This document shows, one piece after another, positions 4,856 to 61,510 of a stretch of 64,000 nt of DNA. A model generated the notes under the pieces. That model did not search any database and was not told the origin of the DNA. It saw only the letters and a list, made by a program, of their open reading frames with translations. Within the stretch, counting starts at the first letter, position 1; each line of letters opens with the position of its first letter. The stretch covers positions 51,088,001-51,152,000 of the forward strand of contig OZ024750.1 of NCBI GenBank assembly GCA_964016885.1. Reading direction: 5' to 3'. A program made the position numbers and the translations under genes. Origin of the DNA: Eledone cirrhosa. Taxonomy: Eukaryota.

Positions 4856-4885
<30 letters not shown>

Positions 4886-4888
<3 letters not shown>

Positions 4889-5080
4889 GAACGAGTAGGA
4901 CGCCGACGGCTGAGCTCAAGCCAGTTTCGACGGCTAATTCTGGACTCCAGAATTAGCCGTCGAAACGGCTTGAGCTCACCCATCGAGGTCCTACTCGTTC
5001 CTATTACCCACTCTACTACCCTAAGTATTGAGTACTTTGGTGCGTTATGGTCCACTTGGTGCCTTACCACATTTCCTTCG

Positions 5081-5082
<2 letters not shown>
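4886..5082 (+). mobile_element. Truncated fold-back copy of the Penelope pLTR 3' end (half hammerhead)
   Basis: Matches 18690-18830, has a short inverted arm, and lies in (TA)n. Confidence 0.8.
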
Positions 5083-5115
<33 letters not shown>

Positions 5116-7694: not shown

Positions 7695-8000
7695 AGATAT
7701 ATATATATATAAAAACAAATAACGAAACGAAATTAAATTTCGTTTCGCTTCTAACTCACTTTTGTATGACTGACGCTTAAACAATTAAGTTAAAGTGTAC
7801 ATCTACATATGTATACGGAAGTATTAGTATGCATATAAATACACACATGTATACATATGTACATGTACTCAGCTTTTCACTAGACACTTTACAGTGAGTG
7901 TCAGCTAGTCTGTATGTAACCACACAGACGGACCGGGTTTTAGAGTCATACGGGTTTTCAAGGAAACACATTTCCTCTATTCTCCACAGGGCCAGACAGG

Positions 8001-8045
8001 AATATTGGACTAGTTTCGATGTTATTACATCTCATCAGCAATATT
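8001..8045 (-). ncRNA. Minimal type I hammerhead (GUC)
   Basis: Reverse complement of 8957-9001. Confidence 0.92.
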
Positions 8046-8463
8046 TACCCATCTTCCGGCTTCTCTGGAGAATTGTAAAAGCACATATCGTTATATGCTT
8101 TTTCTATGAAAATTAGTAGTGGGTAGACTAATTTGCATAGAACGTGAGTCAATGTACGCACCGGTTCAGCGGAAACGATAAAAACAAATAACGAAACGAA
8201 ATTTAATTTCGTTTCGCTTCTAACTCACTTTTGTATGACTGACGCTTAAACAATTAAGTTAAAGTGTACATCTACATATGTATACGGAAGTATTAGTATG
8301 CACATAAATACACACATGTATACATATGTACTCAGCTTTTCACTAGACACTTTACAGTGAGTGTCAGCTAGTCTGTATGTAACCACACAGACGGACCGGG
8401 TTTTAGAGTCATACGGGTTTTCAAGGAAACACATTTCCTCTATTCTCCAGAGGGCCAGACAGG

Positions 8464-8508
8464 AATATTGGACTAGTTTCGATGTTATTACATCTCATCA
8501 GCAATATT
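8464..8508 (-). ncRNA. Minimal type I hammerhead (GUC)
   Basis: Reverse complement of 8957-9001. Confidence 0.92.
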
Positions 8509-8956
8509 TACCCATCTTCCGGCTTCTCTGGAGAATTGTAAAAGCACATATCGTTATATGCTTTTTCTATGAAAATTAGTAGTGGGTAGACTAATTTGCA
8601 TAGAACGTGAGTCAATGTACGCACCGGTTCAGCGTAAACTGTAAAGTGTCTAGTGAAAAGCTGAGTACATGTACATATGTATACATGTGTGTATTTATAT
8701 GCATACTAATACTTCCGTATACATATGTAGATGTACACTTTAACTTAATTGTTTAAGCGTCAGTCATACAAAAGTGAGTTAGAAGCGAAACGAAATTTAA
8801 TTTCGTTTCGTTATTTGTTTTTATCGTTTCCGCTGAACCGGTGCGTACATTGACTCACGTTCTATGCAAATTAGTCTACCCACTACTAATTTTCATAGAA
8901 AAAGCATATAACGATATGTGCTTTTACAATTCTCCAGAGAAGCCGGAAGATGGGTA

Positions 8957-9001
8957 AATATTGCTGATGAGATGTAATAACATCGAAACTAGTCCAATAT
9001 T
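8957..9001 (+). ncRNA. Minimal type I hammerhead (GUC)
   Basis: AAUAUUG-CUGAUGA-GAUGU AAUA ACAUC-GAAA-CUAG-UC-CAAUAUU; outer stem AUUCUCCAGAG/CUCUGGAGAAU. Confidence 0.93.
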
Positions 9002-9236
9002 CCTGTCTGGCCCTCTGGAGAATAGAGGAAATGTGTTTCCTTGAAAACCCGTATGACTCTAAAACCCGGTCCGTCTGTGTGGTTACATACAGACTAGCTG
9101 ACACTCACTGTAAAGTGTCTAGTGAAAAGCTGAGTACATGTACATATGTATACATGTGTGTATTTATATGCATACTAATACTTCCGTATAAATATGTAGA
9201 TGTACACTTTAACTTAATTATATATATTTATATATG

Positions 9237-15959: not shown

Positions 15960-16027
15960 AATATGGTTTTATAAATATAGTGTCCATTTATTTAATATCA
16001 TTTTATATATATATAGGAACAAGTAGG

Positions 16028-16123
16028 ACCCCGACGGATGAGCTCAAGCCGTTTCGACGGCTAATTCTGGACTAAATGAACATTTTTATCCTGGTAAATG
16101 AATAGCCGAACTTCTCAGGGGGT
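16028..16123 (-). ncRNA. Hammerhead-like motif with CUGAGAA core (inverted pLTR)
   Basis: ACCCC-CUGAGAA-helix II CGGCUA/UAGCCG with insert-GAAA-helix III-GUC-GGGGU. Confidence 0.65.
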
Positions 16124-16379
16124 AATTCCATATATGGTAAAAGTGATTGTCACAAGGATTGGTCAAAAGTTTGTTGTTGAGACACATGATTCTATCATGG
16201 CATTTTGTGGAAGGTAGGGGTAGCTGAACTTGCCAGTAGAAGAAATAGGGAGAGGGAGTGGAGGAAACCTAGTCAAGCGTTGAAAGTGACAACTACAGCA
16301 GATTCTAAGGATAGAAAGTCGAAAAAAGAGAGTTTGATGGTATTTTTGTTGATTTAAATTCACCGATATTTTTTCCTGC

Positions 16380-17457
16380 ATTCGGCGGTGGATTGTACCG
16401 TGATGATGGGCTCCTTACCCTTAAAAGGTACAACCCCAGTAGTACAGACCGGGGCCGTAAACAATTAATCAGCTTCTTCCGCGACTGGAGATTTAAAATA
16501 ACCCTACAGACGTCCTTAACCCGAGTAAACTTCCTGGACATTACTCTTAACCTCGATAACGACCTGTACTACCCATACAGCAAACCAAACGACAACCTGC
16601 ACTACATCCACCACCGGTCGAACCATCCTAGAAACATCACCAATAACCTGGTTAAAAACATCTCCCTCCGCATATCTCGTTTGTCCGCTTATGAGCAGAT
16701 ATTCGAGGAACATGCGCCTTATTACAACCAGGCCCTCAAGTGGAGTGGCTTCCGGGAGGAAATATCCTATTGTCCAGCTTCCATTAGCGGAACCAGCAGG
16801 CCACACCGCCGCTGACGCAACGTAACTTGGTTCAATCCTCCCCACAATACCGAGGTGACAACAGCTGTCGGGAAAATCTTCTTTAGGCTCATCGAAAAAC
16901 ACTTCCCACAACAACACCGCTACCACAACGTAATCAACAAAAATACCATCAAACTCTCCTACAGCACCGCACCAAACTTAGCACAAAACATCGTCTCTAA
17001 CAACAAAAAACTCAACCCCTATGGAAGAAATAACCTAGATAGCAGCGGAGATCCGACCAGGAGGTGTAACTGTCCTGATGGATCCCTTTTCCCCCTCGAC
17101 AACAGATGCAGATATCGTAATGTGATCTACCAGTGCAATGTGAGGACGGACACCTCCAACAAAGCTTATATAGGATTAACCGCTTGTGACTTCAAGACCC
17201 GACTATACCAACACAGACATACTTTCCGGAACCCGGCCCGGCGTCACGTCACTACACTTTCGGGCCACATCTGGGACCTCAAAGATAACAATAGAACCTA
17301 TAATCTCACTTGGAGCTTACTGTCCAGAACCAACTCTTACACGGGAGGACGCCGTCCGTGTAACTTATGCTCGGAGGAAACATTACAAATGCTGTTTTCG
17401 ACTTACCAACTCAAACCCCATAATGACCCGGGGGGGGGGGGGGTAGACAAGGGCTGA
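16380..17457 (+). pseudogene. Penelope RT C-terminus plus GIY-YIG endonuclease (one internal stop)
   Basis: GLYRDDG, VNFLDITL, YIH..SNHP, WFNPP, KLSYS, NVIYQC..YIGLT, CNLC. Confidence 0.9.
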
Positions 17458-18639
17458 AATACCCCACATGCCGACTTTGTAAGGGGTAACCCCTGCTTAC
17501 AAAGGTAGACGTAACTTTTTTTTATATATTGTTTAATATATTTTTTATCGTTTCCTCTATATTTACTTCTCCCCCCCCCCTCCCTTCCTAGGCCTTCCAC
17601 CCCAGATCTCCTTCTTTGTCGTCATTCTTTTCACCTTCTCACCCACCCCGATTCAGCCCTTCGGTCCTCTGTAGCCTCAGTACCCCCACGCCCCTTATTG
17701 TATGATAGAATTGGCCGATTCCGCTTTTTAAAGCAGATGTGCTAGACCCCAGATACTTGCTTTCTCCTCTGATTGCTACCCCATTTCCGTGATTTCTAGA
17801 TTTCTTAGTGGTATTTCTGCTTTAGTTTCTCTTATATCAGTATTTTTTTTTGGGGGGGGGGGGGGGGGAGGGGGGATTCTGAATAAATTTTTCGTATTAG
17901 TTTTTCGTATATATTGTACGAGTATTTATGTAGATTGTATTAGAATTTATGTATTGTAGCAGTATTTATATATATTGTATTAGTTTTTTATATTTATTGT
18001 ATGAGTATTTATGTAGTTTGTATTAGAATTTATGTATTGTAGCAATACTTATATATATCGTATTAGTATTCATGTTTCGGGATTCTGAATTAATATTTCG
18101 TATTAGTTTCGGGATTCTGAATTATTATTTCGTATTAGTTTTTTTAGTATTTTGGCCCCCTACTTGTTGACCTGTCATTGTAAGATAGATTTGGCCGATT
18201 ACTACTAACTCATAAAATTCTTTCACTACAATCTCGTATTTAATACTCCGTCCCACCTATTAAACTTATCTATAGTTTAGCAGTACCAGTGAGAGATTTG
18301 ATGATTGTGGAAGGGGACTCATAACCAGAAATTGTTTTTTTTTTATTTTTTTAATATTTTTTATATTGTTTATATATTTACTCCATATAGATTTACTTAT
18401 TGTTTAAACTGCCTCCTCCCCCCTTCTCTAGTATACTTTTTTCGACCTTCTATCCTTAGAATCTGCTGTAGTTGTCACTTTCAACGCTTGACTGGGTTTC
18501 CTCCACTCCCTCTCCCTATTTCTTCTACTGGCAAGTTCAGCTACCCTACCTTCCACAAAATGCTATGATAGAATCATGTGTCTCAACAACAAACTTTTGA
18601 CCAATCATTGTGACAATCACTTTTACCATATATGGAATT

Positions 18640-18735
18640 ACCCCCTGAGAAGTTCGGCTATTCATTTACCAGCATAAACATTTTCATTTAGTCCAGAATT
18701 AGCCGTCGAAACGGCTTGAGCTCAGCCGTCGGGGG
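18640..18735 (+). ncRNA. Hammerhead-like motif with CUGAGAA core (3' pLTR)
   Basis: CCCC-CUGAGAA-G..CGGCUA/UAGCCG..C-GAAA-CGGCU UGAGCUC AGCCG-UC-GGGG. Confidence 0.7.
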
Positions 18736-19698
18736 TCCTACTTGTTCCTATTACCCACTCTACTACCCTAAGTGTTAAGTACTCTGGTGCGTTATGGTCC
18801 ATCTGGTTCCTTACCACATTTCCTTCGTTATATATATATATATATAAATGAAACACTAGTACCGAGGTCGATTTTTCTCCCACTCTCTTTCTCAGGAAGG
18901 AATGAGTTGTGTTCAGACCTAAGAGGTCAAGGTTAAAGTGGCCTATCTGGATGACTCCTTACGACTCCATCAGGAGTTAAAAACCTTATTTCTTCATATC
19001 ATAAAAGTATTTCAGTGTCAACATCTTAAAAGAATAGAATAGATTAATCTGAGAAGAAGGTAACAGTAGAAACAGCAGGTCCCTCAACGAATTAGTTTGT
19101 ATAAAAACGATTTAGATTTATAATATAAAAATTAAATTTTTATAATAAATATTCATCGTGTTTGTAATAAATATGAGAATGTGATATATTTATTAGAGCG
19201 CAGAGACTGGTTGGTCATTTTGATTGTCCGTTCACCCACAGCAGTGTATGTTCTGAAGTCGGTCAGTTTGCAGGAATACATCGCGTCCCGTTAATATTTG
19301 TATGGGAGAGGTATTAATATAAGGATGGAGTGAAGGAAGTATAGGAGAGAGGGCAATAAAAGTGATGAATTCCATTAGATATATGTTGCTTGAAAGTTAA
19401 ATGTTGGTAATGGAGTCCGTAGAAAAGTGTGAACATAATCTTCCGCTACAAATAGCAAAGAGCACGATAGACATCTCCACACATTCAGTAACAAATAAAC
19501 ATTGCATTGCCTTGGGAGAATATACATAGACACACATACACACATAGACACATAGACACATACACACATACACACAGACACGCATACACATAGACACACA
19601 TACCCACATACATACAGACACACACACACATACACCTATATATATAGTGGTTTCGCAGAATTAAAATTCCAGTCGGTTCTTCTGTTGTTCTTTTAATA

Positions 19699-19737
<39 letters not shown>

Positions 19738-19739
<2 letters not shown>

Positions 19740-20632
19740 CCGAGAATAGGAATCTCGGCCCACGAAATAACGAAACACAATCTTCGAAATGCATGGCAAA
19801 GGGCTCAATAGTTTGGATAAACCAGAGCTATAACTATTGTTTAAATACCAACACATAGAGACAATGCTTAAAATCATTCGCACAGCCGAAAAAACGACCA
19901 GGAAAATTCGGGTCACACAAATCATAAATTAATAAATTAATAAATTAAATGAATGTAAAATCTTACCCGGACCCGCTAGAAGGATGTTAAATTCTAGCTT
20001 TTGGGGTTTCGGCAGTTCCTTAATCAATTATCGTCAGCCCACATAAAAAATATACCTGACTTCTGGTAAAGAGACGAACGAGGAAACTGCTTTCTCAGCA
20101 GGCATTTCGTTCAAAAATACAGAGGCACCCGTTACTAAACGCACATGGAGTCCAGCAAGGGAGGGAACCCCTATATTATGCGAATGAATTCAGTAATGTG
20201 TATATTTTTGTAAAAATACAAAATATCACATATCGAATTAGAGTTCTCAACAGACGTGTTAAAATTAACAAGAGCTATTCATCAGTCAATAAGATCTACT
20301 AAAAAATCAATAAAATTAACTGGTCAATAGCTAAAGACTGGAGATAAATACAAATAAATAATCGAGAATCGGAATCTCGGCCCACGAAATAACGAAACAC
20401 AATCTTCGAAATACATGGCAGAGGGCTCAATAGTTTGGATAAACCAGAGCTATAACTATCGTTTAAATACCAACACATAGAGAAAATGCTTAAAATCATT
20501 CGCACACCCGAAAAAACGACCAGGAAAATTCGGGTCACACAAATAATAAATTAATAAATTAATAAATTAAATGAATGTAAAATCTTACCCGGACCCGCTA
20601 GAAGGATGTTAAATTCTAGCTTTTTGGGTTTC
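19738..20632 (-). mobile_element. Partial tandem (period ~622 bp) retrozyme/pLTR-like element in (TA)n
   Basis: 19738-20010 is repeated at 20360-20632; the unit carries an HHR-like motif. Confidence 0.75.
19964..20104 (-). ncRNA. Hammerhead-like motif, CUGAGAA core, long helices II and III
   Basis: UGCCUG-CUGAGAA-AGCAGUUUCCU..AGGAACUGCC-GAAA-CCC..GCUAGAA/UUCUAGC GGG-UC-CGGGUA. Confidence 0.7.
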
Positions 20633-20859: not shown

Positions 20860-21054
20860 CACACATATACACATACATACACACACACACATATACACAT
20901 ACATATACACACACAAAACCTCATATATATTTACACACATATGCTTATACATATATATATATATAAATATGTATATTTATAATATATATGCAAAGTATAT
21001 AAAATATGTAGGAAAATGATAATATAAGCTAGACATATGAACAACAGAAACAGG

Positions 21055-24000
21055 AGAGAATAGAGAGTAATAGAGTGTAATGGAGAGTAATGGAGAGTAA
21101 TAGAGAAGAATAGAGAGGAATAGAGAGTAATGGAGAGTAATAGAGAGTAATAGAGAGGCATAGAGAGTAATAGAGAGTAATAGAGAGGAATAGAGAGGGA
21201 TAGAGAGTAATAGAGAGTAATAGAGACGAATAGAGAATAATCGAGAGTAATAGGGAGTAATGGAGAGTAATAGAGAGTAATAGAGAGTATTAGAGAGTAA
21301 TATAGAGGAATGGAGAGTAATAGAGAGTAGTAGAGAGAGATAGAGAGTAATAGAGAGTAAGAGAGAGTAATGGAGAGGGATAGAGAGTAATAGAGAGCAA
21401 TATAGAGGAATATAGAGTAATAGAGGGTAATGGAGAGTAATAGAGACGAATAGAGATGAATAGAGAGTAATAGAGAGTAATAGAGAGGAATAGAGAGTAA
21501 TAGAGAGTAATGGAGAGTAATGGAGAGTAATATAGAGTAATAGAGAGGAATAGAGAGTAATTGAGAGTAATAGAGAGGAATAGAGAGTAATAGAGAGGAA
21601 TAGAGAGTAATTGAGAGTAATACAGAGTAATAGGGAGTAATGGAGAGTAATAGAGAGTAATAGAGAGGAATAGAGAGTAATAGAGAGTAATAGAGCGGAA
21701 TAGAGAGTAATAGAGAGTAATGGAGAGTAATAGAGAGTAATAGAGTGTAATAGAGAGTAATAGAGAGGAATAGAGAGAAATAGAAAGTAATAGAGAGTAA
21801 TAGAGAGTGATAGAGAGTAATAGAGTGTAATATAGAGGAATAGAGAGTAATAGAGAGTATTAGAGAGAGATAGAGAGTAATAGAGAGTAATAGAGAGTAA
21901 TGGAGAGTAATAGAGAGTAATAGAGAGCAATGGAGTGTAATAGAGAGTAATAGAGAGGAATAGGGAGTAATAGAGAGTAATAGAGAGGAATAGAGTGTAA
22001 TAGAGAGTAATAGAGAGTAATGGAGAGTAATAGAGAATAATAGTGAGGAGTAGAGAGTAATATAGAGTAATAGAGAGGAGTAGAGAGTAATAGAGAATAA
22101 TGGAGAGTAATAGAGAGTAATAGAGTGAAAGAGAGAGTAATAGAGAGGAATAGAGAGGAATAGAGAGGACTAGAGAGTAATAGAGAGTAATGAAGACTAA
22201 TAGAGAGCAATAGAGAGGAATAGAGAGGAATAGAGAGTAATAGAGAATAATGGAGAGTAATAGAGAGTAATAGAGTGTAATATAGAGTAATAGAGTGTAA
22301 TAGAGAGTAATAGAAGTAATAGAGAGGAATAGAGAGCAATAGAGAGGAATAAAGAGGAATAGAGAGTAATAGAGAGTAATAGAGAGGAATAGAGAGTAAT
22401 GGAAAGGAATAGGGAGTAATAGAGAGTAATAGAGAGTAATATAGAGTAATAGAGAGTAATGGAGTGTAATAGAGTGTGATAGTGAGTAATAGGCAGGAAT
22501 GGAGTGTAATAGATAGTAATAGCGAGTAATAGAGAGTAATGGAGAGTAATAGAGAGTAATAGAGAGTAATGGAGAGTAATAGAGAGTAATGGAGAGTAAT
22601 AGCGTGTAATAGATAGTAATAGAATGTAATAGAGAGTAATAATGAGTAATGGAGTGTAATAGAGAGTAATAGAGAGTTAATGGAGTGTAATAGAGAGTAA
22701 TAGAGAGTAATGGAGAGTAATGGAATGTAATAGAGTGTAATAGAGAGTAACAGAGAGTAATGGTGTGTAACAGAGTGTAATAGAGAGTAATGGAGAGTAA
22801 TAGAGAATAATGGAGAGTAATGGAGAGTAATGGAGAGTTATGGAGTGTAATGGAGTGTAATAGAGAGTAATAGAGAGTAATAGAGAGTAATGGAAAGTAA
22901 TGGAGAGTAATGGAAAGTAATAGACAGTAATGGAGTGTAATAGAGAGTAATAGAGAGTAATTGAGAGTAATGGAATAGAGATTAATAGGGAGTAATGGAG
23001 AGAAATAGAGAGTAATAAAGAATAATAGAGAGTAATAGATACTAATAGAGTGTAATAGAGAGTAATAGAGAGTAATAAAGAGTAATGTAGGGTGATAGAA
23101 TGTAATAGACAGTAATATAGAGTAACAGAGAGTAATAGAGTGTAATAGAGAGTAATGGAGAGTAATGGTGAGTAATAGAGAGTAATAGAGTGTAATAGAG
23201 AGTAATTGAAAGTAATAGAGAGTAATAGAGAGTAATATAATGTAACAGAGAGTAATAGAGTGTAACAGAGAGTAATACAGTAATATAGAGTAATAGCGAG
23301 TAATAGAGTGTAATAGAGAGTAATAGAGAGTATTAGAGAGTAATATAGAGGAATAGAGAGTAATAGAGAGTAGTAGAGAGAGATAGAGAGTAATAGAGAG
23401 TAAGAGAGAGTAATGGAGAGGAATAGAGATTAATAGAGAGCAATATAGAGGAATATAGAGTAATAGAGGGTAATGGAGAGTAATAGAGAGGAATAGAGAT
23501 GAATAGAGAGTAATAGAGAGTAATAGAGAGGAATAGAGAGTAATTGAGAGTAATACAGAGTAATAGGGAGTAATGGAGAGTAATAGAGAGTAATAGAGAG
23601 GAATAGAGAGTAATAGAGAGTAATAGAGCGGAATAGAGAGTAATAGAGAGTAATGGAGAGTAATAGAGAGTAATAGAGTGTAATAGAGAGTAATAGAGAG
23701 GAATAGAGAGAAATAGAAAGTAATAGAGAGTAATAGAGAGTGATAGAGAGTAATAGAGAGTAATATAGATGAATAGAGAGTAATAGAGAGTATTAGAGAG
23801 AGATAGAGAGTAATAGAGAGTAATAGAGAGTAATGGAGAGTAATAGAGAGTAATAGAGAGCAATGGAGTGTAATAGAGAGTAATAGAGAGGAATAGGGCG
23901 TAATAGAGAGTAATAGAGAGGAATAGAGTGTAATAGAGAGTAATAGAGAGTAATGGAGAGTAATAGAGAATAATAGTGAGGAGTAGAGAGTAATATAGAG

Positions 24001-27000
24001 TAATAGAGAGGAGTAGAGAGTAATAGAGAATAATGGAGAGTAATAGAGAGTAATAGAGTGAAATAGAGAGTAATAGAGAGGAATAGAGAGGAATAGAGAG
24101 GACTAGAGAGTAATAGAGAGTAATGAAGACTAATAGAGAGTAATAGAGAGGAATAGAGAGGAATAGAGAGTAATAGAGAATAATGGAGAGTAATAGAGAG
24201 TAATAGAGTGTAATATAGAGTAATAGAGTGTAATAGAGAGTAATAGAAGTAATAGAGAGGAATAGAGAGCAATAGAGAGGAATAAAGAGGAATAGAGAGT
24301 AATAGAGTGTAATAGAGAGGAATAGAGAGTAATGGAAAGGAATAGGGAGTAATAGAGAGTAATAGAGAGTAATATAGAGTAATAGAGAGTAATGGAGTGT
24401 AATAGAGTGTGATAGTGAGTAATAGGCAGGAATGGAGTGTAATAGATAGTAATAGCGAGTAATAGAGAGTAATGGAGAGTAATAGAGAGTAATAGAGAGT
24501 AATGGAGAGTAATAGAGAGTAATGGAGAGTAATAGCGTGTAATAGATAGTAATAGAGTGTAATATAGAGTAATAATGAGTAATGGAGTGTAATAGAGAGT
24601 AATAGAGAGTTAATGGAGTGTAATAGAGAGTAATAGAGAGTAATGGAGAGTAATGGAATGTAATAGAGTGTAATAGAGAGTAACAGAGAGTAATGGTGTG
24701 TAACAGAGTGTAATAGAGAGTAATGGAGAGTAATAGAGAATAATGGAGAGTAATGGAGAGTAATGGAGAGTTATGGAGTGTAATGGAGTGTAATAGAGAG
24801 TAATAGAGAGTAATAGAGAGTAATGGAAAGTAATGGAGAGTAATGGAAAGTAATAGACAGTAATGGAGTGTAATAGAGAGTAATAGAGAGTAATTGAGAG
24901 TAATGGAATAGAGATTAATAGGGAGTAATGGAGAGAAATAGAGAGTAATAAAGAATAATAGAGAGTAATAGATACTAATAGAGTGTAATAGAGAGTAATA
25001 GAGAGTAATAAAGAGTAATGTAGGGTGATAGAATGTAATAGACAGTAATATAGAGTAACAGAGAGTAATAGAGTGTAATAGAGAGTAATGGAGAGTAATA
25101 GAGAATAAGAGTGAGGAGTAGAGAGTAATATAGAGTAATAGAGAGGAGTAAAGAGTAATAGAGAATAATGGAGAGTAATAGAGAGTAATAGAGTGAAATA
25201 GAGAGTAATAGAGAGGAATAGAGAGGAATAGAGAGGACTAGAGAGTAATTGAGAGTAATAGAGAGGAATAGAGAGTAATTGAGAGTAATACAGAGTAATA
25301 GGGAGTAATGGAGAGTAATAGAGAGTAATAGAGAGGAATAGAGAGTAATAGAGAATAATGGAGAGTAATAGAGAGTAATAGAGTGTAATATAGAGTAATA
25401 GAGTGTAATAGAGAGTAATAGAAGTAATAGAGAGGAATAGAGAGCAATAGAGAGGAATAAAGAGGAATAGAGAGTAATAGAGTGTAATAGAGAGGAATAG
25501 AGAGTAATGGAAAGGAATAGGGAGTAATAGAGAGTAATAGAGAGTAATATAGAGTAATAGAGAGTAATGGAGTGTAATAGAGTGTGATAGTGAGTAATAG
25601 GCAGGAATGGAGTGTAATAGATAGTAATAGCGAGTAATAGAGAGTAATGGAGAGTAATAGAGAGTAATAGAGAGTAATGGAGAGTAATAGAGAGTAATGG
25701 AGAGTAATAGCGTGTAATAGATAGTAATAGAGTGTAATATAGAGTAATAATGAGTAATGGAGTGTAATAGAGAGTAATAGAGAGTTAATGGAGTGTAATA
25801 GAGAGTAATAGAGAGTAATGGAGAGTAATGGAATGTAATAGAGTGTAATAGAGAGTAACAGAGAGTAATGGTGTGTAACAGAGTGTAATAGAGAGTAATG
25901 GAGAGTAATAGAGAATAATGGAGAGTAATGGAGAGTAATGGAGAGTTATGAAGTGTAATGGAGTGTAATAGAGAGTAATAGAGAGTAATAGAGAGTAATG
26001 GAAAGTAATGGAGAGTAATGGAAAGTAATAGACAGTAATGGAGTGTAATAGAGAGTAATAGAGAGTAATTGAGAGTAATGGAATAGAGATTAATAGGGAG
26101 TAATGGAGAGAAATAGAGAGTAATAAAGAATAATAGAGAGTAATAGATACTAATAGAGTGTAATAGAGAGTAATAGAGAGTAATAAAGAGTAATGTAGGG
26201 TGATAGAATGTAATAGACAGTAATATAGAGTAACAGAGAGTAATAGAGTGTAATAGAGAGTAATGGAGAGTAATGGTGAGTAATAGAGAGTAATAGAGTG
26301 TAATAGAGAGTAATTGAAAGTAATAGAGAGTAATAGAGAGTAATATAATGTAACAGAGAGTAATAGAGTGTAACAGAGAGTAATACAGTAATATAGAGTA
26401 ATAGCGAGTAATAGAGTGTAATAGAGAGTAATAGAGAGTATTAGAGAGTAATAGAGAGGAATAGAGAGTAATAGAGAGTAGTAGAGAGAGATAGAGAGTA
26501 ATAGAGAGTAAGAGAGAGTAATGGAGAGGAATAGAGAGTAATAGAGAGCAATATAGAGGAATATAGAGTAATAGAGGGTAATGGAGAGTAATAGAGAGGA
26601 ATAGAGATGAATAGAGAGTAATAGAGAGTAATGGAGACTAATAGAGAGTAATAGAGAGGAATAGAGAGTAATTGAGAGTAATAGAGAGTAATAGGGAGTA
26701 ATGGAGAGTAATAGAGAGTAATAGAGAGGAATAGAGAGTAATAGAGAGTAATAGAGCGGAATAGAGAGTAATAGAGAGTAATGGAGAGTAATAGAGAGTA
26801 ATAGAGTGTAATAGAGAGTAATAGAGAGGAATAGAGAGAAATAGAAAGTAATAGAGAGTAATAGAGATTGATAGAGAGTAATAGAGAGTAATATAGAGGA
26901 ATAGAGAGTAATAGAGAGTATTAGAGAGAGATAGAGAGTAATAGAGAGTAAGAGAGAGTAATGGAGAGTAATAGAGAGTAATAGAGAGCAATGGAGTGTA

Positions 27001-28595
27001 ATAGAGAGTAATAGAGAGGAATAGGGAGTAATAGAGAGTAATAGAGAGGAATAGAGTGTAATAGAGTGTAATAGAGAGTAATGGAGAGTAATAGAGAATA
27101 ATAGTGAGGAGTAGAGAGTAATATAGAGTAATAGAGAGGAGTAAAGAGTAATAGAGAATAATGGAGAGTAATAGAGAGTAATAGAGTGAAATAGAGAGTA
27201 ATAGAGAGGAATAGAGAGGAATAGAGAGGACTAGAGAGTAATAGAGAGTAATGAAGACTAATAGAGAGTACTAGAGAGGAATAGAGAGGAATAGAGAGTA
27301 ATAGAGAATAATGGAGAGTAATAGAGAGTAATAGAGTGTAATATAGAGTAATAGAGTGTAATAGAGAGTAATAGAAGTAATAGAGAGGAATAGAGAGCAA
27401 TAAAGAGGAATAAAGAGGAATAGAGAGTAATAGAGAGTAATAGAGAGGAATAGGGAGTAATAGAGAGTAATAGAGAGTAATAGAGAGTAATAGAGAGTAA
27501 TGGAGTGTAATAGAGTGTGATAGTGAGTAATAGGTAGGAATGGAGTGTAATAGATAGTAATAGCGAGTAATAGAGAGTAATGGAGAGTAATAGAGAGTAA
27601 CAGAGAGTAATGGTGTGTAACAGAGTGTAGTAGAGAGTAATGGAGAGTAATAGAGAATAATGGAGAGTAATGGAGAGTAATGGAGAGTTGTGGAGTGTAA
27701 TGGAGTGTAATAGAGAGTAATAGAGAGTAATTGAGAGTAATGGAATGGAATAGAGTTTAATAGGGAGTAATGTAGAGAAATAGAGAGTAATAAAGAATAA
27801 TAGAGAGTAATAGATACTAATAGAGCGTAATAGAGAGTAATAGAGAGTAATAAAGAGTAATGTAGGGTGATAGAATGTAATAGACAGTAATATAGAGTAA
27901 CAGAGAGTAATAGAGTGTAATAGAGAGTAATGAAGAGTAATGGTGAGTAATAGAGAGTAATAGAGTGTAATAGAGAGTAATTGAAAGTAATAGAGAGTAA
28001 TAGAGAGTAATATAATGTAACAGAGAGTAATCGAGTGTAACAGAGAGTAATACAGTAATATAGAGTAATAGCGAGTAATAGAGAGTAATAGAGAGTAATA
28101 GATTGTAATAGAGAGTAATAGAGAGTAATTGAGAGTAATAGTGAGTAATAGAGAGTAATAGAGTGTAATAGAGTGTAATAGAGTGTAATCTAGAATAATA
28201 GAGAGTAATAGAGTGTAATAGAGAGTAATATAGAATAATAGAGAGTAATAGAGAGTAATAGAGTGTAATAAAGAGTAATAGAGAGTAATATATAGTAATA
28301 GAGACCAATTGAGAGTAATAGAGAGTAATAGAGAATAATAGAGCGTAACAGAGTAATAGAGTGTAATAGAGAGTAATACAGTAATATAGAGTAATATAGA
28401 GTAATAGAGAGTGATAGAGAGTTACAGAGAGAAATAGAGAGTGATAGAGTGTAACAGAGAGTAATATAGAATAATAGAGAGGAATAGAGAGTAATAGAGC
28501 GTAATAGAGAGTAATAGAGAGTAATATAGCGTTATAGAGAGTAATAGTGAGTAATTGAGAGTAGTAGAGAGTAATAGAGAGTAATAGAGAGTAAC
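21055..28595. repeat. 10-bp satellite (TAGAGAGTAA)n with higher-order duplications
   Basis: The same variant block recurs at ORF-track anchors 22339, 24272, 25447 and 27400. Confidence 0.97.
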
Positions 28596-28805
28596 ATTAG
28601 TCTCCTAATACATATATGAATATATATTGTGAAAGTCAAATATTAATCTAACAATTAATCAGAGAATTGTCGTCTATAGATAGCATAAAAATAGAAATAA
28701 TTATTATGCACACACACAAACATACACAGACACACACACATATACACACACATACACACACACACATATATATATAGAGAGAGAGATATATATATTATTT
28801 TTACA

Positions 28806-37142: not shown

Positions 37143-37331
37143 ATAACGAAGGAGGTGTGGTAAGGAACCATATGGACCATAAAGTATACTTAGGGTAGTA
37201 GAGTGGGTAATAGGAAAATGTTTAAGCCCGACGGCAGAGCTCAAGACGTTTCGACGGCTATTTCTGGAATGAGTCCAGAAATACCCGTCGAAACGGCATG
37301 AGCTCTGCCGTCGGGCTTAAATATTTTCCTA
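37143..37331 (-). mobile_element. Half-hammerhead fold-back pLTR copy (diverged subfamily)
   Basis: Homologous to 4886-5082; the plus-strand arm has helix III CGGCA/UGCCG. Confidence 0.75.
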
Positions 37332-37350
37332 TATATATATATATATATAT

Positions 37351-45150: not shown

Positions 45151-45288
45151 GAGTCCAGAATTAGCCGTCGAAACGGCTTGAGCTCAGCCGTCGGGGTCTT
45201 ACTGGTTCCTAGTACCCACTCTACTACCCCAAGTATTGAGTACTTTGGTGCGTTATGGTCCACCTGGTTCCTTACCACATTTCCTTCG

Positions 45289-45291
<3 letters not shown>
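45151..45291 (+). mobile_element. Truncated pLTR 3' copy
   Basis: Matches 18690-18830. Confidence 0.8.
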
Positions 45292-45329
<38 letters not shown>

Positions 45330-48902: not shown

Positions 48903-48964
<62 letters not shown>

Positions 48965-48966
<2 letters not shown>

Positions 48967-49157
48967 GAAAAAGTATGACCCCGACGGCAGAGCTCAAGCC
49001 GATTCGACGGCTATTTCTGGACCAGAAATAGCCGTCGAAATGGATTGAGCTCTGCCGCCGGGGTCAGACCTTTTCCTATTTCCCACTCTACTACACTAAG
49101 TATTGAGTTCTCTGCTGCGTTATGGTCCATCAGGTTCCTTACCATAATTCCTTTGTT

Positions 49158-49158
<1 letters not shown>
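48965..49158 (+). mobile_element. Half-hammerhead fold-back pLTR copy
   Basis: Homologous to 4886-5082. Confidence 0.75.
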
Positions 49159-49245
<87 letters not shown>

Positions 49246-58819: not shown

Positions 58820-59196
<377 letters not shown>

Positions 59197-60318: not shown

Positions 60319-60323
60319 ATATA

Positions 60324-60516
60324 TAACGAAGGAAATGTGGTAAGGAACCAGGTGGACCATAACGCACCAAAGTACTCAATACTTAGGGTAGTAGAGTGGG
60401 TAATAGGAACGAGTAGGACCCCGACGGCTGAGCTCAAGCCGTTTCGATGGCTAATTCTGGACTGAATTAGCCGTCGAAACGACTTGAGCTTAGCCGTCGG
60501 GGTCCTACTCGTTCCT
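60324..60516 (-). mobile_element. Half-hammerhead fold-back pLTR copy
   Basis: Homologous to 4886-5082. Confidence 0.8.
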
Positions 60517-61510
60517 ATATATATATATATATATATATATAAGAGAGAAAGGGACACTGGTTGAAATATAGCTTAGTTTACATATATCTTGTGTTTATCC
60601 CGATATGTATTCGTATTCATCGAGATAAAATTGGTTTTCTTGAGCATCTGCCTAATTGTGTGCTAGTCTTAGATTTTAAGAGCTAGCATTAACTATAGAT
60701 ATTGTATACGTTTCGACCAACCATTGTCAGGCACACGCTCTATAGATACAGATATTCTTTAGAAATAAAGAGAGCTGACGTCTCCTTTGTTATTAATATC
60801 GTTTGATGTATTTAGCTGAAGATATTTTTCATTATGTATTTATTCTTATAAAATCATCTCTTTATGTATGTATTGTATGTGTATGTATTGTAGATATTGT
60901 ATGTATATTCATATTGAGCTACACAGAACTTAAAAAAAAAAAAACACCAGCAAACGTATTACATATATGTATAGACATATATATATATGTATAGATTAAT
61001 ATATGTGTATATGTATGTATATATGTGTATATGTGTATATGTGTGTATATATGTGTATATATGTGTATATGTCAGTATATGTCTGTATATGTGTGTATGG
61101 GTGTGTATGTATATGTGAGTGTGTGTGTATGTGTGTGTGTAGTAAATTTTATCTTAAACCACGAAGACATCTCATTTCTTCTGATTGCGGTTACGGCAGC
61201 CCCTCTCCCGTCGTTCTACTTCAAAATAGTAAATTCTAGTCTGTATATTTAGTTTTCTTACATTATATTTTGCACCCTTTGTTTTGTTTTGTTTTGTTTT
61301 GTGTTGTTACCCTTTTTTTATAATCTAAAACTTCTATAAGAGTATATTAATAGTACATTACTGTTATTAGCTCTTTGTATTTCCAAGAAATGTACCAATA
61401 CTTGGAAGAATCGTAATCTTGCTTTTACTATTTTACTATTTTACTACTTCTTATTATCAACGGCCATAATTACATCGATGCCAACAAGTCAATAAAAGGC
61501 AATAAATAGC

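Follow-up and report, generated by a model that had tools for sequence, protein, structure and literature searches.

Two unrelated repeat families of Eledone cirrhosa, one a Penelope-like element (PLE) and the other a non-coding unit of 622 bp, have kept a mismatched 3-8 pair in their hammerhead ribozyme motif over several rounds of spreading, and have mended it later. Both families are present in the window, by which we mean the whole stretch of 64,000 nucleotides that was analysed (GenBank assembly GCA_964016885.1, contig OZ024750.1, positions 51,088,001 to 51,152,000 of the forward strand; coordinates below are those of the window). Three motifs had been proposed there by a sequence-only reading, two in pseudo-long terminal repeats (pLTRs) of the element and one in the unit, and all three were found at the positions it gave, with the core CUGAGAA in place of CUGANGA, a long loop II and a helix III (Table 1). 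The C3·A8 core is inherited and fixed across whole subfamilies and is not the product of decay after insertion. Our favoured explanation, held at a probability of roughly 0.6, is that the C·A mismatch would leave a folded, strongly slowed ribozyme, which may be tolerated since the elements are predicted to be copied from uncut RNA; the attenuated ribozyme offered as one option by the sequence-only reading was thus retained as the best account. The 3-8 pair is regarded as essential. In this genome, two independent lineages multiplied to hundreds or thousands of copies while this pair was mismatched, kept the fold and mended the pair three times, which suggests that the shape of the hammerhead matters more to the elements than rapid cleavage does.

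Both strands of the window were scanned for CUGA..GAAA..UH with three stems, and three of the six matches had the CUGAGAA core. These had type I architecture, with three helices at a junction and helix I open-ended. In pLTR copy 2, helix I is formed by 18640-18644 with 18731-18735, the core lies at 18645-18651 and GAAA at 18708-18711, and the predicted cut follows 18730; loop II has 39 nt and a palindromic loop closes helix III. An extra G in helix I is private to this copy, and a mismatch in helix III is private to copy 1. Pair 10.2-11.2 of the pLTR motif is U·U or C·U, accompanied by a bulged U. The hammerhead of the unit, with its predicted cut between 19970 and 19969, has a structured loop II of 67 nt and a long helix III, and an extra A follows its core. 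The pair G10.1-C11.1 is present in the element; it is replaced by A·A in the unit family and in a sister family of the unit (73-75% identical, with tandem units of 610-614 bp), and by A·C in the window copy. Across all subfamily majorities U4 G5 A6, A9, G12 A13 A14, A15.1-U16.1 and H17 were constant, and a Watson-Crick 3-8 pair was absent from the window's subfamilies (C·A), the relatives having U-A or U·G.

The register of the core was read from genome-wide matches, which are given as the first by genome position, with totals that are exact-match lower bounds. When C3 was fixed in the pattern, the core was CUGAGAA in 97 of the first 100 element matches (1277 in total) and in 28/31 unit matches, and an older element subfamily had C3 in 63/74; this fixation in whole subfamilies bears out the earlier view that the core is not decay. 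Early searches in which C3 was fixed or favoured overstate its share, and the family proportions come from core-free searches. In these CUGAGAA was not the majority state, and U3 led in both families. The first 100 of 5153 element matches comprised 78 with U3 (59 UUGAGAA, 12 UUGAUAA, 5 UUGAAAA and 2 UUGAAGA), 21 with C3 and one with G3, and none with C3-G8; the first 100 of 144 unit matches comprised 53 with U3 and 47 with C3, all with A8. G8 was found in only 49 element matches; an old subfamily contributed the 23 UUGAAGA among them, 9 were scattered copies with C3-G8, and 17 were others. Among the first 100 of 129 sister-family matches, U3 was found in 100 and G8 in 99, with A, G or U at position 7, and this family (UUGA-N-GA) aligned to the unit without a gap. 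Position 7 also varied (G, U, A) in whole subfamilies, position 8 stayed a purine, and the majority states at 3 and 8 were always pyrimidine-purine. No subfamily had fixed the canonical C3-G8 pair, so the canonical CUGANGA consensus that would have spoken against a variant core was not seen. The variation at position 7 and the gap-free alignment of the relatives identify the fifth letter as N7, so that CUGAGAA has a C3·A8 mismatch and is one transition away from the published U3-A8 variant. Contigs of one sample carried both letters at position 3 (20098), which repeats the genome result.

That the two families are unrelated, as had been claimed, was confirmed by blastn of element against unit DNA, in which no similarity was found and the best hits were of 10-19 nt with E of at least 0.32. 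An 8-mer shared by their loops II was not kept across subfamilies and was taken as chance.

The case for a real structure is comparative, because single copies folded no better than shuffles (z -0.5 to -0.9) and an Rfam scan at E<=1 reported none of the three motifs, picking up only the canonical motifs near 8 kb. Across 25 copies of the unit and its sister family, 96.3% of 544 cells were paired and 38 cells had changed on both sides; pairing as high as observed was reached by 0/500 shuffles and slid controls were 29-45% paired, a result that relatedness inflates. Helices I-III were 94-100% paired with covariation, and helix II had two-sided changes at 4/6 pairs. During the C3·A8 phase of the unit, 10/10 substitutions in helices I and II kept pairing, three of them as double changes; the chance of such retention, simulated with recombination ignored, was 2e-5 to 1e-3. 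The fold was clearly maintained by compensatory changes while the pair was mismatched. None of the 12 core sites changed over the whole element lineage, where the loops would predict 7.4 changes (P about 0.0006); position 7 changed twice. The hammerhead was the minimum-energy fold in unit subfamilies S1-S5 and in the youngest element subfamily, which gains pair 10.2-11.2; in element subfamilies A1 and A2 a hairpin over GAAA competes with it and the hammerhead fold lies 3-4 kcal/mol above the minimum. In the S3 window copy, C3 permits a local hairpin (20083-20103, minus strand) that sequesters the core in the lowest-energy fold. In the two youngest element subfamilies (L091:5219-5312) five loop II bases might pair with, and so make tertiary contact to, the 3' bulge of helix I; this match is broken in the older subfamilies.

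The history of the pair in the element was traced on a tree built from the endonuclease-coding DNA that is linked to 73 hammerheads; this DNA contains no ribozyme letters. The tree is a ladder that leads from UUGAAAA/UUGAAGA through the C3·A8 subfamilies O3, A1 (the window's) and A2 to U3-A8 subfamilies, with mean tip lengths of 0.044, 0.038, 0.025, 0.017, 0.011 and 0.003; the tip length of O2 (0.005), which comes from two arms of one insertion, was excluded. Because tip lengths drop along the ladder, its order is independent of the midpoint root. A tree of the pLTR alone had dropped 24/86 rows and lost old subfamilies, and was superseded by the endonuclease tree. A single C3 clade was rejected by the approximately unbiased (AU) test in the element (p 8e-57; 70 rows, three lone point mutants dropped) and in the unit (p 2e-72; 55 rows, five dropped). 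Rooted on U3·G8 relatives, the unit tree has two main branches that both begin with C3·A8, and each yields a U3-A8 group. From these trees we infer that C3·A8 stood on the trunk of both lineages, with U3·G8 in older or sister families. The element would have passed from U·G or U-A to C·A, through three successive subfamilies, and then to U-A; in the unit, C·A would be ancestral relative to the U·G sister family and would have turned into U-A twice. All three exits from C·A that were found led to U-A, as might be expected if C·A were an inferior state that is tolerated and not one that has been optimised. The youngest element subfamily has U3-A8 and intact open reading frames (ORFs); frames of more than 720 codons were open in 9/15 long copies of this subfamily, which were chosen for intact frames, vs 0/28 C3·A8 copies. 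Recurrence in two families had been put forward as an argument for a functional variant; two lineages there are, but the argument is weaker than stated, because C3·A8 is one transition from the known U3-A8 and three lineages left it.

How a mismatched motif could persist is suggested by chemistry and by the ends of the copies. A C·A(+) pair adopts the wobble shape of U·G. With such a pair G5, A6, A9, G12-A14 and the 2'-OH at position 8 could still assemble, though rarely. Cleavage would be strongly reduced, as a deep mutational scan measured low activity for single changes in this part of the core (PMC9901934), and probably little or no cutting by the motif took place during the mismatch phase. 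Of 322 element pieces, a set in which complete copies were selected for and stubs are by-catch, 120/322 ended at +20 from the predicted cut and 146/322 at about +103; the inverted pLTR copy of the window stops in (TA)n 20 nt past its predicted cut, at one of these two end points. The fixed 3' end of the unit lies in (TA)n about 230 nt past the predicted cut, just beyond a hairpin. Copying would thus start downstream of the cut site, by 20-103 nt in the element and about 230 nt in the unit, so that fast cutting would shorten the template, and the mismatch may be tolerated because copying is predicted to use uncut RNA. In line with an uncut template, only 2/322 pLTR pieces started within 2 nt of the predicted cut, and hammerhead mutants of an anole element, from another clade, were not impaired in insertion in vitro (PMC11167929). 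Six pLTR stubs (4885-5087, 37143-37341, 45152-45295, 48962-49162, 58936-59158 and 60320-60527) are mostly head-to-head, with arms that end at +20 and about +103 and are joined 31-53 nt upstream of the cut, and they contain only the 3' half of the hammerhead. The same junction zone was met throughout 1 Mb of loci; twin priming with a halt at the edge of the fold may account for it.

Helix III in both families would be stable enough for the hammerhead to fold as a monomer, and the weak 3-8 pair may act as a brake, as the tiny helix III does in other Hydra elements; the canonical motifs near 8 kb in the window have a tiny helix III. A stronger form of this idea, which we regard as possible and hold tentatively, is that monomer-competent hammerheads are kept tuned down, the pair cycling among U·G, U-A and an active C·A(+) and avoiding C-G, since fast cutting would destroy the template. 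If it were true, the genome would contain repeated, dated crossings of a ribozyme fitness valley made in nature, with all intermediates open to assay, and standard CUGANGA searches would miss thousands of such ribozymes.

Several observations weigh against these readings. A brake of this kind is not general, as fungal PLE hammerheads with a large helix III cut fast (PMC4209133), and the catalogue of Hydra hammerheads behind the helix III trade-off is biased to canonical cores. Three exits are too few to establish avoidance of C-G (1 in 8 at even odds), and C-to-T changes are common. The subfamily majorities come from 4-43 copies chosen non-randomly. Recombination can bend repeat trees, as the mixture of U3 and C3 in unit subfamily S6 (8 vs 4) illustrates, and support is weak for many of the short inner branches. 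When the C3·A8 phase is taken by itself, no core change was seen against 2.0 expected in the element (P 0.13) and 0.8 in the unit (P 0.44); core conservation is thus not significant in the mismatch phase, and complete catalytic death is possible.

On that account, which we consider rather unlikely, the C3·A8 motif is catalytically dead, its fold is kept as a protein binding or positioning signal by the copy-start sites, and position 3 drifts. Besides the phase-specific core counts, the copy ends agree with it: no cleavage footprint was detected among 5' ends in the element or at the cut in unit pieces of 30 loci, only 2/322 pLTR pieces started within 2 nt of the predicted cut, and many element 5' starts pile up 31-47 nt upstream of it, at the fold edge. 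The unit also carries a second defect, its A·A at 10.1-11.1, and in an anole element hammerhead mutants left insertion in vitro unaffected (PMC11167929). It is opposed by the unpaired catalytic letters, which never change lineage-wide while position 7 and the loops do, by the three lineages that regained a Watson-Crick 3-8 pair and then amplified, and by the invariable pyrimidine-purine majority states at 3 and 8.

The opposite view, that C3·A8 works fully and reaches near-normal cleavage through loop II tertiary contacts, A8 protonation or the element protein, we judge improbable. The long persistence of the core in more than 1200 exact-match copies and the maintained helices would be expected of it; tertiary-stabilised hammerheads bear some core changes better than minimal ones (PMC3884650), and the anole ribozyme required protein, so that assistance of this kind has been reported (PMC11167929). 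The low activity of single core mutants (PMC9901934) is against it. So are the repeated return to U-A and the competing hairpin favoured by subfamilies A1 and A2. Inosine pairs as G does, A·C mismatches are preferred substrates of the editing enzymes, and the element often forms inverted repeats; A-to-I editing of A8 could then give a C-I pair and switch the ribozyme on in RNA. We consider this very improbable, as the 3-8 pair is tertiary and outside a duplex, a 5' G neighbour disfavours editing, unselective editing would strike other core As, and the commoner U3-A8 form would be weakened. Least credible of all is the register offered as the other option by the sequence-only reading, in which N7 is deleted, an extra A follows A9 and C3-G8 is retained: an additional base between 9 and 10.1 is frequent in PLE hammerheads (PMC4209133), but the G in question becomes U and A in whole subfamilies while position 8 stays a purine, relatives with G at the next position align gap-free, and the published section on natural core variants lists no A6-N7 deletion.

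With a slowed ribozyme as the preferred account, the nearest published relative is the U3-A8 core variant (Perreault 2011, PMC3088659; Schistosoma Cercyon PLEs, Cervera and De la Pena 2014, PMC4209133), which shares A8 and the location in a PLE pLTR and is exactly the state of the majority and of the youngest members of the element family. The window copies differ from it in having C3 against A8, their relatives also fix U3·G8, and the published motifs are minimal, without helix III, unlike those of the window. The Hydra clade (Craig 2021, PMC8557442) shares with the element the protein motifs, single ORF, (TA)n targets, partial tandems, an inverted truncated copy and a 3' hammerhead, and mismatches at 10.1-11.1 occur in its File S2. 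In all 26 Hydra rows of that file, found with a canonical descriptor, the core is CUGANGA, loop II does not exceed 10 nt and loop III has 1-3 nt, against a non-canonical core and loops of 39 and 7 nt in the element. Metazoan non-LTR retrozymes (PMC7229834; bioRxiv 10.64898/2026.07.22.740005) are, like the unit, non-coding AT-rich tandems with one type I hammerhead each, both apparently moved by PLE machinery; the unit differs in its length (610-622 bp vs about 300 bp), non-canonical core, A·A at 10.1-11.1 and long loop II and helix III, and is known here from genomic copies, the class trait being unit-length linear and circular RNA. In the green anole, the PLE PAc Poseidon (Frangieh 2024, PMC11167929) has two internal reverse transcription start sites, matching the two 3' end points seen here, but a canonical C3-G8, minimal hammerhead that overlaps the start codon. 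Hydra elements, retrozymes and U3-A8 cores are thus already known. No report seems to exist of a C3·A8 or U3·G8 core fixed in a subfamily, or of an ordered walk among such states: no natural C3·A8 or fixed U3·G8 was found in a literature search whose coverage of 3-8 mismatch kinetics and of prior description was incomplete, CUGAGAA together with hammerhead returned only one unrelated paper, a text search of the Perreault supplements gave nothing on this pair (the figures of inactive variants, S6-S7, lying outside that search), and the available text of PMC11014351 and PMC7151607 has nothing on the 3-8 pair. The natural, time-ordered variants (U·G, C·A, U-A) provide a means to probe the need for cleavage, help by protein and rescue by protonation. 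Searches with a CUGANGA descriptor miss whole families, with at least 5153 exact-pattern matches in the element, 144 in the unit and 129 in the sister family.

By its protein motifs and insertion traits the element is assignable to the Hydra clade of PLEs. Intact relatives encode a protein of 717 aa in a single ORF, reverse transcriptase followed by a C-terminal GIY-YIG domain, in 3.5-kb tandem arrays. The motifs RWR, DKT, CNCPDRSIC, CNLC and CKH match the definition of the clade, which gives RWK-like and DKT motifs, a CxCX5C linker, and CxxC and CxH next to the conserved E and N (PMC8557442). Pfam assigned no family to the protein and its domains were read by motif; 82 homologues had 34-54% identity. 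Insertion in (TA)n and tandem and inverted pLTRs are as in the clade; of its canonical hammerhead near the 3' end, the hammerhead was there and the core was non-canonical. The coding remnant of the window is interrupted in frame by a stop at 16813-16815, carries a deletion close to the C-terminus and is 89.7% identical in DNA over 1060 nt to an intact relative (717 aa). A probable recently active source is an array (L091-L092, G000:C1:437198500-437217500) in which the youngest subfamily is present as four tandem copies of 3531 bp, their 717-aa ORFs being near-identical.

The unit has a period of 622 bp with one hammerhead per head-to-tail copy and no coding remnant inside its copies, and it fits a putative non-LTR retrozyme. 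Its sister family forms arrays of up to five units (L283 and L305-L324, for example G000:C2:382773685-382776159), with U3·G8 fixed and A·A at 10.1-11.1. Contig depth on unit parts 19756-19860 and 20239-20343 was 10-100x that on the hammerhead, which points to commoner, more diverged relatives or to many short 3' copies.

Table 1. Features of the two families in the window.
Feature	Position	Strand	Remarks
Inverted, 5'-truncated pLTR copy (copy 1), Hydra-clade PLE	16013..16328	-	96.8% identity over 317 nt to 18436-18751
Type I hammerhead, pLTR copy 1	16028..16123	-	C3·A8 core 16118-16112; predicted cut between 16033 and 16032
5'-truncated coding remnant: reverse transcriptase end, linker, GIY-YIG endonuclease	16315..17457	+	from translation
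3' untranslated region and pLTR	17458..18829	+	ends about 99 nt past predicted cut, in (TA)n
Type I hammerhead, pLTR copy 2	18640..18736	+	C3·A8 core; subfamily A1
622-bp non-coding unit, retrozyme-like and non-autonomous, about 1.45 copies head to tail	19738..20632	-	fixed 3' end in (TA)n
Short hairpin right before fixed 3' end of unit	19740..19758	-	about 210 nt past predicted cut; same distance in listed unit loci
Type I hammerhead, 622-bp unit	19964..20104	-	C3·A8 core 20098-20092; subfamily S3
3' half of next unit's hammerhead (GAAA onward)	20586..20632	-	insertion truncated there

The canonical CUGAUGA hammerheads near 8 kb, which have a tiny palindromic helix III, lie at 7985-8057 (minus strand), 8449-8519 (minus strand) and 8946-9016 (plus strand); they belong to another repeat and are found inside a 554-nt inverted repeat. 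Downstream of the unit copies, positions 20919-28600 are occupied by a long satellite with a 10-bp unit in about 670 copies.

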